In this document: positions 5,613 through 64,000 of the stretch, piece after piece
Layout of the letters: the number at the start of each line of letters is the position of its first letter
Numbering within the stretch: position 1 is the first letter of the stretch
Assembly: GCF_037042905.1 (NCBI RefSeq)
Contig: NC_087252.1
Span: forward strand, 1,242,001-1,306,000
Direction: 5' to 3'
DNA: 64,000 nucleotides
Origin: Lytechinus pictus
Taxonomy: Eukaryota
Position numbers and translations under genes: made by a program
Notes under the pieces: generated by a model
What the model was told of the DNA's origin: nothing
Seen by the model: only the letters and a program-made list of their open reading frames with translations
Database searches by the model: none

Positions 5613-6919
5613 GGGTGTGTGTGTGTATACCATGGTTACAATGCTGTATATCCAGCATTCAATATCAAGGGTTCCATGTATATACATGTAGTAAATGAAT
5701 AGATAATAAAACAGACGAGTGATTTGTTTGAAATCATTTGATGCCGAAAGTCCGTGCCTTATCATTCCATTTGTGTTTCGCAGTTTCACAAAACACAGTG
5801 ACGCAATAGGCATAATATGAATAGAATAATATGGTTTATTCTGCCTTCATTTAGGAACACTGTAGGGGCGGCCCCAGGAACTCAATTTTATTCATTTAGA
5901 TATTATTTTATTTCATGTTTGTTTGATGTTGTTTTGTTGTTTGCTTTTATTTCTGCGTTCAAAGAATACAATATCAAATGTGACATAATTATATGCAATA
6001 TACAAAATAATCCATAACATTAACAATATAATCATAATACATAATGAATACAAAATAATGATTATGAGCATAAACTTGACTTTTTGAAAAAAAATTATAA
6101 TAATAATATTTAATGAACGCAGGAGACCGCCATCATGATGGCGGCCTCATAAAAAAGGATCGTGACTGAGATTTATATATACTGATCAAGTGGGTGCAAT
6201 GTAGGTGCAGGTACGGGTGCTGTAGATAGCAGTCTAGAGTGATATAAGACTTTTTTTTTTGTCGTTAAAATAATTCCACTTTATTGATTGTTTTAAAATA
6301 TTTCATTATCTGTTAATGAAAACCAAAAAACAAACTAACAAACAAGCAAGAAAACAACAAAACAAAATTAACAGGCAATAACTCATTAAATTAGTAACTT
6401 GCTCATAGCCTTGGTTGTGCAAAAATGGTAAGAGTTTGAGAAAGACACATGGGGGGTTTGACAATGGACATAAGCCCCCGTCTGCTTATAAAGTTGTACA
6501 CAATGTGAAGGCAATGATGGAAAGCGCTCTCTTATGTGCTCATGTTTTGAAGCGAGTATGAAAATAGTCAAATTTTCAGGTGACGACATTTTAAATTAAC
6601 CTTTTCATCTGCTTATTTTTTGCTTGAAAGATTTTGGGCAGGGAATGATCAAATTCACTTTATGTAGCTTGGGTAAGGGGATTAAATTTTGATCCTTTTG
6701 GAAAAAAAGAACCCATTTCCCTATTTTTTGTTAGCATTGCCATAGGCCGATCAAATCTTCACGTTAAACATATCGCATCGCGAAAAAGTTTAATAATGCA
6801 AACATCGTAAAATCGAAATTAGTTTTTGTCTCACCTGCGAAGCAGAGTGGTGAAATAAGAAATTTTAATTGGCGAATGTGGGTATTTGTGTGGTTGTGTT
6901 AATTTGGAGTATGGGTTGA

Positions 6920-34724: not shown

Positions 34725-36846
34725 ATGTATAAGCTGCTGACATCAACGCTTGCCATGCACATCGAACGACACATCGATGATCATGACATAATGGAGGTCA
34801 CTCAGAAAGGTTGTCGGAAAGGAAAGAAGGGTTGTAAAGATCACCTAATGACAAACAAAGCAATAATCGGTAATGCTCGCCAAAGACAGACCAATCTATC
34901 CATGGCTTGGATAGACTACAGGAAGGCATTTGACAGCGTACCACCTAGTTGGATCATCAAAGTTCTAGAGATGTATCACATCAATCCACAAATAGTCAAG
35001 TGCATATCAGCAGGTATGAAACAATGGAGCACTACTCTTTCGCTTACAATAGGCACCCGTTCGATGACAGTGGAGGGGGTCCGAATCAAGAGAGGAATAT
35101 TTCAAGGAGATTCCTTATCTCCTCTTTTATTCTGCTTAGCTCTCAATCCAGTATGCTCTCTCTTACACGCTACGAGTTATGGCTACAGATACAAAGGGCA
35201 AGATGTATCTACGACAATAAACCATCTGATATATATGGATGATATCAAACTCTTTGCAAAAAATGACGATGAACTTCACAAGATGATAGCAGTAGTTAAA
35301 CATTTCAGCGATGACATCAAGATGTCGTTTGGTATAGACAAGTGTGCCAAAGTTACACTTGTACGAGGAAGGAGGGTAAATACAGGCGACATGTCTGTGC
35401 AAGATGAGGAAACATCAATCAAGGAACTGACTAATGATTCGACATATAAATATCTAGGCATAGCTGAGAACGATGTCATTAGCCATAACACAATGAAGGA
35501 GAAGGCAACATCAGAATACAAAAGAAGACTCAGGCTGATCCTCAAATCCGAACTGAATGCCAAAAATAAGATTGAAGCGATCAACACTCTAGCCATTCCT
35601 GTGCTTAGATACAGTTTTGGTATTGTTAACTGGAGACTAGCTGATATATGTGGCCTAGATGTTATGACCAGAAAGCAATTAACGATGCACAGATTACATC
35701 ACCCAAAGGCCGCAATCGAAAGGTTGTACCTTCCCCGTGATCTTGGAGGAAGAGGTCTACAACAAATTGAGATGGTCTGGAATATGGAAGCAACGAACCT
35801 CGCCAACTACCTATCCAATCCACCTGATATACTGACGAGTATATCCCTCGATTATGATAAATGTCAAGCAATATACTCCATTAACAAGCAAGCATCTATC
35901 TTATTGGCACAACATCGACTGACACTACCCTACGGTGAAAAAGAGAAGGCAAGACTTAAATGCTCCTTTCACAAGAAACTTCAAGAGCAACTTAAATCCA
36001 AGCGACTTCATGGCCACCATGAAAAACAGACGCATCGGGAGTTCGTAGACCAGAAAGACACACATCAATGGCTTAAGTCGGCGGGACTAAGAGGTGAAAC
36101 TGAAGGGTTCGTCTATGCTATTCAGGACCAGGTGGTGAGGACCCGTGCCTACGAAAAATCTATCCTCAGAAGAGACACAGACGACACTTGCAGGATGTGT
36201 GGAAAAGAGACCGAAACAATCATGCATTTGGTATCAGCATGTTCGACTCTTGCTGGAACTGAGTACATCACAAGACATGACAATATTGCCAAAGTTATCC
36301 ATTGGCAACTACTGAAGGATCGCGGTAAAATGACTTGTGATCACGCTTGGGAACATCAGCCACAAACGATCACCACGATCAATAACAGCACCATATATTG
36401 GAACTGTGGCATACTAACGGATAGAACCATCCACTGCAACAAGCCGGACATCATCGTCAGAGACAACAACGTAGTAAATATCATTGAGGTCTCTGTTCCC
36501 CATGATATCAACATTGCTGTAAAGGAAAGAGACAAACGGCTCAAGTATCAAGACCTAAGGATTGAGATCGAGAGGATGTGGAACGTGAAAGCAGAGGTCA
36601 CACCAGTCATCATTGGTCACTCAGGAATGGTGAAGAAGGGAATGGAAGCCTGCATAACCAAGATCTCTCCTCACCTTCGGATGTACGACATTCAGAAGGC
36701 AGCTATCTTGGGTACAACCAGATTGATAAGAAAGACTCTCGGACATTAGTAGTGTAAAGTTCCTAGTTGCACTTGAAATTACTTGGTGCTTTTTGTTAGA
36801 GCAAAGTTATTCAAGAAAAAAATACGGACTTGATCCTGTTTAGAGG
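34725..36846 (+). mobile_element. 5'-truncated R4/Dong-type non-LTR retrotransposon (RT, CCHC knuckle, restriction-like endonuclease); ORF 34725-36749
   Basis: 674 uninterrupted codons: WIDYRKAFDSV, GIFQGDSLSPLLF, YMDD, YKYLG, CRMC-x8-H-x4-C, RHD, KPDII...IEVSVP...KY; about 100-nt 3' UTR then TAA repeats. Confidence 0.9.
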
Positions 36847-58830: not shown

Positions 58831-59013
58831 CTCTAATGCCGGGGTGATTATCATTAGATCATGATAAAGTTAAAGCTGGGAGAACTAGTTTTCGGAACTA
58901 TGATGCGGCTATATTGGGAAACATGACTTTCTCATTCTTATCATTCCTAACTTTACATGGCTCGGCGGATATTCGCCACCACTTCCAAATTCACTCTTCG
59001 TTTGACCCCATGC

Positions 59014-59977
59014 TTAATCAAAAGTAGATTCAGAAGAACAAAGTTTTCTCCAAACAGTTATGTCTTTGAAGTATCTGACTGCATTTTCACGGAACAAACG
59101 ATCACGGTAGCAGTATATAACCGGGTTCACCGCAGAGCTAAGGTAAAATATAAACGCTGCCATGTTGTCAAAAGACCATTGTCGATAACAATGGCGACAT
59201 GAACTATACTCGTGGATATGCAACAAACAAAAAACGCAAGGGTGATCGTGGTGACTATATCTTTGAAGCCTTGATACGAGAGACGCTTTCTTCTTGACGT
59301 CCTCGACTGACGGCTTGTTCCATCTGAGCGATCCTCCGAGCATGGTGCAATGCTGTACGAAGAATCAACATGTTGAGGATGACCAATGTTAGTGAGGACA
59401 AGATGATGATTATCATCAGGATGATGATCCCAATCCTATACAGGTGATCCGTTTGAGTGATAGTCCCAGCGCAGTAGTTTCCGACGAGACTTGCATCTTC
59501 ATCTTTACCAACCAGACCGATGACAAACAAGATGCTCATCAACCAGCTGAGGAGTATCCCGAAAGCGATTCGCTTCGAGGCGACCAAGGCTTCGTACCGG
59601 AGAGGTTTATGAACAGCGATGTAACGATCCAAGGTTACCATGACGATGTGAAGCAGAGAATTCCCGCCAAATAGATAGGTGAACGACGAGAGGTACCTTG
59701 AGTAGATGTAAAGACATGTCACTTCAATGAAGACAGCTCTGTTGAATGTTTCTAGTGGTATGCTGATAGCACCGTTTAAAAGGTGGACAAAAGCTAAACT
59801 AGATAAAAGATAGTAGGTAGGTCTTCGGAGGCGATCGGTTTTTAGGAAGGTGGCAACTACCAGAAAGTTTCCGACAACAGTACTGCAGATGAGAAGAATA
59901 GCCAACGTAACAATGAAAGCTGTGTAGATTGGAGAATTAGGAATCCATGGAAGGGTACATGTATTCACTGAAGCCAT
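59014..59977 (-). pseudogene. Frameshifted tandem paralog of the class A GPCR
   Basis: ATG 59977; colinear with 56768-57754; extra TA near 59256-59259 gives KASKI*; TM6 (VTTITLAFFVCCIS) lies in a second frame; deletion near 59175 shifts again before FDNMAAF...NPVIY; TM2 Asp replaced (SLAFVH). Confidence 0.85.
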
Positions 59978-60770
59978 TGTGTACACGGTTTTATTTCAAA
60001 GATTTTAACAATAAAGAAACAAAATAAATCAAGATATAATGGTTAATAGGCTGTAAAGCTATTGCCTTCTAGCTCCTGGTGATGTCATAATGAATTTTAT
60101 GAGAAATATAGAATTAGGTAGTCAACAGGATTTTGTTCCTCAAAGCTGGCTTCCTTTAGCATGTTTAGTGTATGCCACGATTGGTCCTCATGAGTATTAT
60201 ATAACAAGAAGCGCCATCGTTTACGATGTGCTTGTATATATGATGCAGAGAAAAGCCAGCGATGTCAAAGAAAATAATATATCTTCAGGAATCATGGGAA
60301 TTGTAAGAAGAAGTAACAAAATCGGATGAGTATTCGAGCTAATAATGCTATCATAGTTAGCTTTGAATGATTGATACTAGGGCAAGGTCACAAGCTCTTA
60401 AAAGGAAATCCATGCCAGGGTATTAATTAAAAAAATATATAAATTTATTTTAGCCGACCAAAATTTACTTCAAGTGTTTTACGCATTGTTGATTTTAGAT
60501 GCACGGCAGCATTAAAATACAGTTCATGGCACAATACATTAAACTAATTAGGGTTTCGAGATGACAGCGGTTGCTGCATCCGTTTTCTCTTGTCGTACAC
60601 TTTTTTTGGACGTTACATACTACGGTCGATCCCCATGATATGAATATGAGTTCGCTTTTAATTCAATTTAAGTGTTTCAAGCACTATGTCAGATGCATTG
60701 TAGCATAAATTGGTTGTGCGACCATTCATGTCCCGATACATTATACCTAATTAATTAGGGCTTCTTTATA

Positions 60771-61900
60771 GAGTACAAGGGCGTACCAAGTTTTCCATTG
60801 GAGGCAGGGGTATGTTCCTCACACTGTCAGAGTAGGTGTTTCTCAGGTGGTCTTGTAACTCCTCTCTAGTGGCCTTCAGTTCACCAGATTTCACAGGGTT
60901 GAAAAGAGCTTTGGTGAAGGCAAAATGATCTTCATAGACTTTCTGTAGTTTCTTGGCACATCCTTTCCCTTTCCTTCTAAGCGTCTTGGACAGAGCTTTC
61001 AACCTCCTTCTCTGCTCATCTCTGATGTCATCTAGAGCTTTCATTTCAATATCATTGTTATTCTTTCTTGCCTCCTTCCAACGCCGCTGCAGGGCTCGTA
61101 CACTGTGTCGTATGTCATGGATTTCTTGCTGTCTTAGCCTCGATGTAACCGTCTGTGGCTTCGTACTGGCACAACCGAAGTTGTCGACCCCGTACTGGTA
61201 TTTTGCCTCCATCATAGAAGAGAGTCTCTCTTCGGTATTTCGCTTCATAGATTCGACCAGTACTTTGTCAAGCTGGTCATCCATGGCTTCCCACATGTCT
61301 TTACTAGTTGAATTAGGCCACTTTACCTTCGGACGTTTGCTCATACTACTTGGGTTGTGGGATGTAGCGTCGGAATCGGGGGCACCGTGGTTGTCATCCT
61401 TGCCACTATTTCCATGCGCCTGACGTGACTGATCACTGCGTTGCTTAGCCCACTGCTCACTCCTTGGCTGCTCAGATGTCGCTCTCCTAGTGCAACCTAC
61501 CTTCGCCTGGTGAATTCTTAGACCCTTGGTTGTGTTGAAATTTCTATCGCATGATACACAGGCTACCGTTGGGCGCAATCGTAGTCCTGGGGCGAAGCCT
61601 AGTCCTTATATCAGTATCATCCGGCCGTGTTAGTGATTCTTCCGCTCCCCTCTCGGATCACTCTGGGAGTATTCTTAATTGTCTATCAGAAATCGTAACA
61701 ACATAGAGGGTGCCACAAAGGGCTGAGTTAGGGGCAGTAAACCCCCTCCTCCCCCGCCTGGGTTGCCGGCAAAGTCATGCAAGTCTCTCCTTGCTGTCAC
61801 CAGCCTGTTCCTGGTTCGTCACCATGGTCTATTTCTATGTGGTCACTGGGAGTCCAGTACCGCGAGATGATAAAAACACACCTTGTGCAGAGAAATGTCC
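60771..61900 (-). mobile_element. HERO-like non-LTR retrotransposon, 5' UTR and N-terminal ORF fragment (zinc finger), broken before RT
   Basis: CVSC-x12-HQAKVGC finger, KVKWP, FAFTKALF and HLRNTYSD blocks typical of the N-terminus of RLE-type ORFs; no RT follows. Confidence 0.7.
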
Positions 61901-61904
61901 TCCA

Positions 61905-62017
61905 GAACAGCTGGATCCTCAGTCGAGGTCCTCCTGCCAGCCATTTCGGCCCATTATCCTTGATGTGGCAGGAGGTGGGCCAGCAGCGTCAAGACGAGAT
62001 GCAACCTCCAGCTGCTC
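61905..62017 (-). ncRNA. Candidate hammerhead-core ribozyme with permuted, pseudoknotted helices
   Basis: GAAA (61947-61944) and CUGAGGA (61922-61916), each flanked by strands with complementary partners (11, 6, 10 and 5/6 bp) plus an extra hairpin; C at the U16.1 position suggests this copy is decayed. Confidence 0.5.
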
Positions 62018-62758
62018 GTTTGGTAAGTTGTCTTTATATTTAATCCAAAACCAGGCTGAGGACCTTGTAGCAATCTCCATTAATTCCAAAGCCAGCTTCC
62101 TTCTGTTGGTTATTCCCATCCTTGAGAGGAAGAAATGGAGAGACTTGGTCGCATATCCTCTGCAGCCGATCTCCACTGGGTAGTAGTCTACCTTCCATCC
62201 CCTCTTCTTACATTCTAAGATAAGTCCGGCATATTTTGACGTCTTGTACTCATGGGCCGTCTCAATTTTCTCCTCCCATGGTACAGTCAGTTTACAGAGG
62301 ATGACCGACTTGGATTGCTTCGACCAGACTACCATATCTGGTCGCATGTTGGTAGTCACAATCTCACTGGGAAAGGTCATCTGCTCATCCAAGTCTGAGA
62401 CCAACTGCCAATCTCTTGCTAGACAAAGGAGCCTACTTGTGTGTAGTCTAGCTTTTCTGTTGGCTCCAGTACTTGTTCCAGCCTTCACAAATGAGATCAT
62501 CGCTGGAGCATTTAGTGGTTTTGTCTGGTTTGCTTTTTCAATAGTGATCTTTAGGGCATTGCTCAGTTCTTTCAAGATCACATTGTGCCTCCATATATAC
62601 AAGTCTTCTACCAGAGACACCTAACAATTTGATAGAATGTGTCTGAGTGAACCTTTCTTTCCACATCTATGGCAATTCTCGTTCTCGGTCTTGGTCCACT
62701 TCTTCAGGTTATACGGAGAAGGAGGAACGTCGTAGGTTGCTCGTAGCAAGAATTGGAC
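61919..62758 (-). mobile_element. HERO-like non-LTR retrotransposon, C-terminal fragment (CCHC knuckle and restriction-like endonuclease), decayed
   Basis: FLLRATYDV-PSP-NL, CHRC...HILSNC*, WRHN, RPDMVVWS, (K)LTVPWEE, KY, GW...PVEIGCRGY; in-frame TAG at 62621-62623; expected acidic catalytic residue reads K. Confidence 0.85.
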
Positions 62759-63243
62759 TTATATAAGTCTAATCATCTTATTAATGTGTATGTCAGTTTA
62801 GTCAATAGAACTGAAAATCGATTAATCAACGATTAAGACATTCTATATCAATCAATATATTGACCGGTTAATCGTTTTAATAAATAAAATAATTTCAGTA
62901 ATGTGTCGGTCAATAGTTTTGTTTGTTTTATAGCGTGTTTTTATTGTCTTCTCTCAAATCAAATATACAATTACAATATAACTCCCATAAGCAAATTATA
63001 CAATCATTGAAACAGGTTTTATCACAGAATTACACAATTGTACAGCGATCATTGAGAACGAAAAATATATAATGATAAGTACATGTAACTTGTCTCTAGT
63101 ATAGACCGAAATTCATTGGAATCAGCAATGAAAAGAGAGAAAAATAAAGATAAAAAAATATTTACATTAACAATCGATCAATCAATAATGCGATGACATT
63201 ATGTTTTTTTTTTTTTTAGATTTTTACTCCTCCACATACATAA

Positions 63244-63770
63244 CGCTGAATCCACGAAGTGGCACAACGTCCCAAAATCACGTGAAAAGTCCATTTTAAG
63301 TATCATTCTGTTTTAGAAGTCAATTCTTAGTATCTTTCAGATTTAGTATTCCTTGACTGTGGTTTATCATTTCACTGAAATTTAGAACCCAATTCTCTGT
63401 AATTAATGAGATAATTAAAGTGAAAAAAATGACACTAGTCTCTAAATCCTTTGTAAAATAATCCACGAAATGGCACGCACGTGCGCGCCGTTTCTACGTA
63501 CGCTGAAGTAATATTTTCCACAAAACGACACTTGTCATGCTTGTGTTTGAATCACTGCTATGTCAAGATTTGATGTTTATTCGATGAAATTTTAACATGG
63601 GAGGCAGGAGTAGATACCTGGCTCGTGGTATGTGCATTTGTCATTCTGTTAAATTTCACAATCATATAGCAACGGGCAATTGAAAATATAACAATCTTTA
63701 ACTGCGTTTATCTCGTTAAGTGAATTCGCCCATCAACGGTTGCGTGTGCCACTTCGTGGATTCGGGGACG
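63244..63770. mobile_element. Non-autonomous TIR element
   Basis: GAATCCACGAAGTGGCACA at left, TGTGCCACTTCGTGGATTC at right, third internal copy near 63460. Confidence 0.65.
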
Positions 63771-63861
63771 ATATATACACTATCGCACACACACACGTAC
63801 ACATCCATACATATAGGCCAGTATGAAATTACAGTATTGAATTTCATCTGGGACAAATTTC

Positions 63862-63895
<34 letters not shown>

Positions 63896-64000
63896 CGCTG
63901 ACTGTTAAAAGCTACTGAAATCCGCCAATCTGATTGGCTTAAAGTGAATTTTGGTAGTTTCTTCATATCACAACTCTTTATAAAACGGGACCCTACCTTG

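Follow-up and report, generated by a model that had tools for sequence, protein, structure and literature searches.

A permuted HERO-like insertion in Lytechinus pictus suggests copying from end-to-start joined RNA

The stretch of Lytechinus pictus DNA analysed here (the window; 64,000 nucleotides (nt) of contig NC_087252.1, positions 1,242,001 to 1,306,000) carries on its minus strand, at 60771-62758, an insertion that contains both halves of one 1,143-amino-acid (aa) HERO-like protein, a reverse transcriptase (RT) with a restriction-like endonuclease, and in which the C-terminal half precedes the N-terminal half. Related genomes and a distant relative contain this joint as well, and its recurrence suggests that the family copies itself from RNA joined end to start, like Penelope-like elements. 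On our best reading of the sequences, the family is habitually partial tandem, with a 5'-truncated tail of its own, bearing a hammerhead-shaped fold, directly before the 5' untranslated region (UTR) of the next unit. For the locus itself, we give roughly even odds (about 0.5) to a decayed HERO-type insertion of such a Penelope-like partial-tandem family, copied from tail-to-head RNA with reverse transcription starting internally.

The closest full-length relative of the insertion is P0170, a 1,143-aa L. pictus RefSeq model. Minus-strand positions 62758-61964 correspond to P0170 aa 879-1143 (243 of 265 residues identical) and are followed by 61674-60778, which correspond to aa 7-310 (248/309 identical, with a frameshift near 61555) and in which the equivalent of aa 16-47 lies in a different reading frame. 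A preliminary description made from the letters of this stretch had proposed this order, i.e., a C-terminal CCHC and endonuclease part before a 5' UTR and an N-terminal zinc-finger part, and the alignment to P0170 bears it out. The description was equally right that the RT is missing: aa 311-878 (568 aa, including RVT_1 at 385-611) are absent from the insertion, and the window holds no other RT of the family, its sole further RT match being a fragment of a different retrotransposon family without long terminal repeats (non-LTR) at 34731-35573 (plus strand), with 21-25% identity to HERO-like proteins. An origin of the halves from unrelated families, raised in the same description, was rejected because P0170 and five of the seven longer relatives first found match both halves; the remaining two have no N-terminus. 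No poly(A) separates the halves, as had been stated, and runs of six or more A or T are absent between 61915 and 61690, from the fold to the start region. The G+C content is 0.40-0.54 within the element versus 0.26-0.37 in the flanks. This single copy is dead and without function of its own; it carries a stop codon, an E-to-K change in the ELTVPWEE endonuclease motif, the frameshift, two 6-nt deletions and a decayed start region. Its parts are as follows.

61964..62758, minus strand: C-terminal coding part (CCHC knuckle and PD-(D/E)xK restriction-like endonuclease; aa 879-1143), with the stop at 62623-62621 and the E-to-K change at 62293-62291
62624..62674, minus strand: CCHC zinc knuckle (C-x2-C-x7-H-x4-C), read from the translation; zf-RVT matches weakly on P0170 aa 866-926
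61905..62017, minus strand: SGC-order hammerhead-like fold with a split C block (stems I-III, helices IV and V, linking helix)
61869..61915, minus strand: tail past the fold, no poly(A); one other copy departs from the window sequence at 61869
61690..61868, minus strand: 5' UTR belonging to the downstream unit; it holds three GTGAC-N-GAAAGAC-like repeats (61846-61783)
60778..61690, minus strand: N-terminal coding part matching aa 1-310 of P0170, with a decayed start codon, the frameshift near 61555 and a zinc finger at 61560-61492
60771..60777, minus strand: seven letters from the end of clear homology to the flank (three extra, then four fitting the next codons)

The junction had been placed at 61900-61919. 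It is real, and its boundary lies near 61870, since the 3' end of other copies reaches about 61869 (contig X1 record 5).

We next consider its recurrence. Contigs of four of the eight listed sequencing runs were aligned to window positions 59000-64000 at 80% likeness, and the results given here are the best-supported rows (the best 15 of 62 joints, with 3,560 further pieces outside them). X1, X5 and X6 are three samples of organism A, and X8 is organism B. Contigs spanning the tail into the 5' UTR were present in all four runs compared. Those of organism A (X1 record 4, X5 record 12 and X6 record 20) have in common a 140-nt deletion (61929-62068) with 11 filler letters, while X8 record 23 spans 62025 to 61136 with no 140-nt deletion among the joints listed. 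In each run, the depth of the 5' UTR bin 61672-61838 was 0.97 of the junction contig depth, and thus no 5' UTR without an upstream tail is found among the aligned contigs. The junction contigs are 89-91% identical to the window and the flank contigs 91-94%; this lower identity, together with the departure of an X6 flank contig at 60770, indicates that the junction contigs probably come from loci separate from the window copy. In the three runs of organism A, the summed depth of the tail reaches about 10x the flank level and that of the head 1-3x, as expected from frequent 5' truncation.

A more distant case is L001, a metagenome locus (43% aa identity to P0170; the only locus found there), in which the end of an open reading frame (ORF) is followed by the fold, a 5' UTR and a new N-terminus that is matched by P0010 aa 5-137 (E 3e-18). 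It has the same six helices as the window, and its GTGAC-type 5' UTR repeat starts 57 nt after the fold, compared with 69 nt in the window. The junction is therefore not unique to the window, a possibility that the preliminary description had left standing. The repeat itself, a GTGAC-N-GAAAGAC-like tandem array, counts three units in the window (61783-61846, minus strand) and five in L001 (2122-2238) and is possibly an internal promoter or a protein-binding motif.

Tail-to-head order could also result from two insertions, a 5'-truncated copy having landed precisely on the 5' end of a full-length copy already present, which was later trimmed. Double insertion is described as the common source of non-LTR tandems in Drosophila, but in the same account it leaves target DNA in the junction and usually yields tail-to-internal joints (PMC5932611; here and below, citations stand for the parts of the papers on which we draw). 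The window junction contains no recognisable host DNA or tail and no TTATA-like or A/T run, the spacing from fold to repeat is similar in two distant lineages (window and L001), and a tail stands before every 5' UTR seen (window, organism A, organism B and L001). We consider this origin very improbable.

Several observations weigh against a habitually partial-tandem family copied in this way. Junction contigs and flank contigs differ little in their identity to the window, so that the junction contigs may be orthologous to the window copy. The junction loci are few, one in organism A and one in organism B plus L001, which may be a collapsed assembly. In L005, a more distant contig (33%), the fold is followed by an (AGT)n tract and no head comes after. 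Internal initiation 1.1 kb inside a unit is seen in the window copy only, and broken fragments are ordinary, another one ending at 60848 (X1 record 3, X6 record 19). Finally, a joint from 60770 to 62764, corresponding to the empty site, is absent from the best 15 of the 62 contig joints.

Reversal of the element order was absent in the 157 proteins compared with P0001, and no relatives were found in viral contigs by protein scans, nor in plasmids and phages. L002-L005 and L006-L020 are eukaryotic retrotransposon fragments on short contaminant contigs in three bacterial assemblies; these contigs hold one tail (L005) and no further one.

The outer ends of the insertion bear on whether the window copy arose in one event. 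Three features mark them.

62759..62763, plus strand: TTATA at the truncated 5' end of the element, one copy of a candidate target-site duplication
60766..60770, plus strand: TTATA at the 3' break of the element, the other copy of the candidate target-site duplication; the organism A flank contig X6 record 17 aligns to 60770 and then departs
62752..62773, no strand assigned: 22-nt near-perfect palindrome over the 5' junction, one of nine such palindromes outside (TA)n in the 64 kb

Both TTATA copies are present where the preliminary description had noted them. Its statement that the two ends break within the ORF also stands, with the refinement that homology to the family stops at about 62754 and 60778, leaving four and seven more letters before the TTATA copies. 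Three colinear X8 contigs (records 27-29) leave at 62754 and thereby fix the outer break. A repeat of at least 5 bp occurs in random flank pairs with a chance of 0.2% at fixed ends and of 4-5% with the observed boundary slack, so that TTATA constitutes modest evidence for a single insertion event.

This evidence weakens a second account, which resembles the trimmed tandem that had been offered as an alternative: the family is partial tandem, but the locus received an ordinary insertion (a truncated tail plus a full unit) and later lost everything from aa 311 to the 3' end by deletion, with TTATA being due to chance. In its favour, the copy has had time to collect its stop, its frameshift and two deletions of 6 nt; fragments broken in other ways are known, among them the junction copies with the 140-nt deletion and filler letters; and a repeat of this length has a chance of 4-5% under boundary slack. 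Against this, TTATA lies flush at both ends, the left boundary is independently fixed at 60770, and nothing would lead a deletion to end just where the sequence of the opposite flank is repeated. Later deletion is still plausible, albeit somewhat unlikely.

Returning to copying from tail-to-head RNA, the anatomy, the recurrent junction, the helices and the C at position 16.1 (see below) are read directly from the letters, while every RNA step of the following scheme is one that we infer. An RNA spanning tail and head would arise by read-through of a tandem or by a jump of the RT from the 5' end of the RNA to the 3' end of the element. The endonuclease would nick an AT-rich site, and reverse transcription would usually start about 45-50 nt past the fold, as judged from one contig plus depth. 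In the window copy, the start would have lain within the N-terminal coding part, about 1.1 kb further along, and the RT would have run back via the 5' UTR and across the junction, stopping at aa 879. The 5' end would then have been joined by snap-back synthesis on the flank, leaving the TTATA that is seen on both sides. In line with this last step, letters 62758-62755 resemble flank sequence copied by snap-back, and snap-back palindromic junctions have been described for R2 insertions (PMC11371274). The other steps have precedents as well: R2 proteins jump templates and head-to-tail repeats have been seen (PMC11371274), the Penelope-like element PAc starts reverse transcription internally, with its hammerhead being dispensable in vitro (PMC11167929), and both read-through and template jumping are known from HeT-A/TART (PMC1636488). 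End-to-end template jumping or partial-tandem read-through yields the same joint as a circular template. Of the earlier proposal that the template was a head-to-tail multimer or a circular RNA, the recurrent tail-to-head joint stands, and a circular template is one candidate source of it.

The proposal of a circle had drawn on a ribozyme-like structure at the junction. A hammerhead-shaped fold is indeed present there, composed of the following parts (all minus strand).

62017-62007/61915-61905: helix IV
62006-61982: hairpin V
61981-76/61953-48: stem II
61975-70/61935-30: linking helix
61969-66/61943-40: stem III
61963-58/61928-23: stem I
61947-44 and 61922-16: core letters GAAA and CUGAGGA
61964..61966: would-be cleavage triplet ACA (C for the canonical U16.1), with a stop codon directly after it in intact relatives

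The core CUGAnGA and GAAA in S-G-C order with stems I and III occurs in the window, L001 and L005. A descriptor of the fold, written after the motif had been seen, matched once across the two strands of the 64 kb window (at the junction), once in L001 and once in L005 (L008 is the same contig), but nowhere in 19 other loci, most of them without a tail, or in 2000 shuffles. DNA-pattern controls on viral contigs returned 2 and 23 matches, and no match came through the helix and triplet tests; a single one of the 23 chance core-letter matches had both stems, and it carried a disallowed G at position 17. L005 has the canonical SGC form, and only there is the C block intact, the partner of stem II lying upstream in the window (6/6 pairs) and in L001 (5/5). 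The linking helix, which connects the far sides of stems I and II, is complete in the window (6/6 pairs), L001 (5/5) and L005 (5/5).

In the window and L001, two extra helices fit without a gap between A9 and G10.1, helix IV beginning immediately after CUGAnGA. Helix IV forms 11/11 pairs in the window and 11/12 in L001, and helix V 7/9 and 8/8, respectively. When the 39 pair positions were compared between these two in a register set by hand, 20 differed on both sides, 2 on one side, 13 were the same and 4 were broken; the changes are suggestive of real helices, as a comparison of two sequences and not as a covariation statistic. The chance of helix IV within the elements is 0.001 and 0.008, and alone it is weak, with five of 23 G+C-rich controls reaching 10 of 11 pairs. 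A four-way junction at A9/G10.1 could keep the core stacked. Folding of narrower segments was unremarkable (z -1.61, -0.08, +0.38 and -0.86), and z values of -3.67 and -2.34 were obtained only in segments chosen after helix IV had been seen. An Rfam search of 60600-62900 returned nothing credible (no match above E 0.97). An HDV-like ribozyme and a type II hammerhead were dropped by eye because their stems do not fit, as was an alternative AUC register, in which stem I fails at the first two pairs.

Two further details were noted in copies that carry the junction. The organism A copy (joint 61928-62069) has lost the S and G blocks and keeps everything from the C block onward exactly, and in the X6 junction copy, the filler and the retained stem I strand form a small inverted repeat.

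Whether the fold is an active ribozyme depends on the triplet, which reads ACA in the window, GUA in L001 and GUU in L005. A NUH triplet with A15.1-U16.1, the most conserved pair (PMC3088659), is thus found in L001 and L005 and not in the window. AAGPPxxT-stop is the ending of eighteen related proteins, and in two more the frame continues past the same T; the codon for this T leaves only C possible at 16.1 in all 20, which reach down to about 60% identity and include many redundant copies. The triplet and its C speak against a working ribozyme in the window lineage, where, moreover, the reading frame crosses the fold and stops right after the would-be cut, so that cleavage would strip the stop codon. 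In L001, the ORF ends about 110 nt upstream.

These data also bear on the idea that a hammerhead cuts multimeric RNA into monomers, which are ligated into circles and copied by the RT from any start. The absence of the descriptor from the shuffles and the seamless junction agree with it, and a circle would restore the stop codon that cleavage removes in the window lineage. However, the codon-forced C within ACA is at odds with cutting, and the C block is interrupted, an arrangement that Eckert et al. assumed to be impossible (PMC10085705, in the part cited). Stems I and II have a pairing probability near 0 in nested folding, which is expected for pseudoknots and gives no support. In addition, one copy diverges from the window 47 nt past the fold (at 61869), and coverage remains high across the fold, which implies that typical copies retain both sides of the would-be cut. 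We therefore regard circles made by the ribozyme as improbable. Under copying from tail-to-head RNA, the fold of the window lineage is most likely a docking site for the RT or an end marker rather than an efficient ribozyme, the core having stayed canonical in distant relatives, and a hammerhead-derived fold may still cut in some lineages while serving mainly as an end or docking structure in this one. A bolder proposal, which we consider doubtful, is that HERO-type long interspersed nuclear elements (LINEs) converged on a Penelope/retrozyme lifestyle. A working, non-circularly permuted tail hammerhead, in some lineages with an undescribed core interrupted by a two-helix four-way junction, would cut and possibly circularise tail-to-head RNA; the internal start of reverse transcription would regenerate an upstream ribozyme with each insertion, and the sea-urchin cut just before the stop would couple cleavage or ligation to translation.

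The label HERO-like is based on domain layout, host range and motifs and not on an RT phylogeny. P0170 matches RVT_1 (E 3.6e-21) and, weakly, zf-RVT, and its single ORF consists of an N-terminal zinc finger, the RT, a CCHC knuckle and a PD-(D/E)xK endonuclease, the knuckle and endonuclease motifs being read from the translation. Pfam and solved-structure matches are of the RVT_1, R2 and L1 type, the best solved structures being R2 proteins (E 4e-26), and the family is present in at least eight separate L. pictus gene loci, with no fixed target seen. The HERO clade (HERO-1_SP, HEROTn) has the same single-ORF layout, and the relatives of the window copy in sea urchin and fish match its reported range; in contrast, tail-to-head partial tandems and a hammerhead fold go unreported in the cited parts of its descriptions (PMC7650587, PMC9004415, PMC3636483).

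Penelope-like elements such as PAc of Anolis provide a parallel in architecture, in that a full-length copy follows a truncated one, the junction carries a hammerhead, copies extend a short way past it before they end, reverse transcription starts internally and the targets are AT-rich (PMC11167929, PMC8557442). They differ in having a telomerase-like RT and a GIY-YIG domain where the window family has an R2-group RT and a restriction-like endonuclease; in addition, the window family has an SGC-order fold and not one of the usual hammerheads, and no inverted copies were seen. With the type-SGC hammerheads of Eckert et al. 2023 (PMC10085705), the fold shares the S-G-C block order, a linker of 2-5 nt between stems I and II and the helix linking the far sides of these stems, and L005 fits them fully, whereas in the window and L001 the 5' strand of stem II lies upstream and two helices are added between A9 and G10.1, and the window has ACA. 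According to the part of that study cited here, its RNAs were not found in the genome of any known organism, with a single GCS candidate as the exception (PMC10085705). R2 template jumping (PMC11371274) and HeT-A/TART (PMC1636488) likewise produce head-to-tail joints free of host DNA, in which the tail of the upstream unit is put to use by the downstream one, as well as snap-back 5' junctions. They keep an intact 3' end, whereas the downstream unit in the window breaks at aa 310, and the window arrangement is dispersed and not located in ribosomal DNA or at telomeres.

In the literature covered (titles, abstract openings and term counts; Repbase entries and the supplements of Eckert et al. lie outside this scope), HERO elements were not linked to hammerheads or to tail-to-head tandems. 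Target-primed reverse transcription, with its start at a fixed RNA 3' end, has its model in R2-group elements, which are also being adapted by engineering to insert genes. If the reading favoured here is true, a clade of this group with Penelope-like partial tandems and an internal start would mean that this architecture is not tied to Penelope enzymes. SGC-order hammerheads would then have a home in the tails of animal retrotransposons, including a split-core variant and a lineage without the canonical triplet, and the fold variants could be used directly as constructs to test whether the hammerheads of retroelements cleave or simply dock the enzyme.

A few minor observations complete the description. 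Among the HERO-like proteins, the ORFs of P0028, P0029, P0031, P0051, P0057, P0058, P0066, P0092 and P0147 run past the endonuclease into a G-x-x-N-x-G-x-T-C-[YF] motif, a candidate Cys box of the kind that ubiquitin-specific proteases have. A rhodopsin-family G-protein-coupled receptor gene (Pfam 7tm_1, E 2.4e-25) starts about 0.8 kb past the 3' break of the element; it occupies 59255-59995 on the minus strand and continues to about 59014, the frame breaking near 59255. The other 22-nt near-perfect palindromes outside (TA)n, at 6125, 7197, 12507, 15182, 25308, 28363, 45115 and 58036, are possibly transposon footprints or repair scars. Lastly, 63244-63770 is a high-copy repeat with inverted ends that resembles a miniature inverted-repeat transposable element, and contigs of organism A contain joints from 63770 back to 63243, i.e., head-to-tail copies of this repeat.
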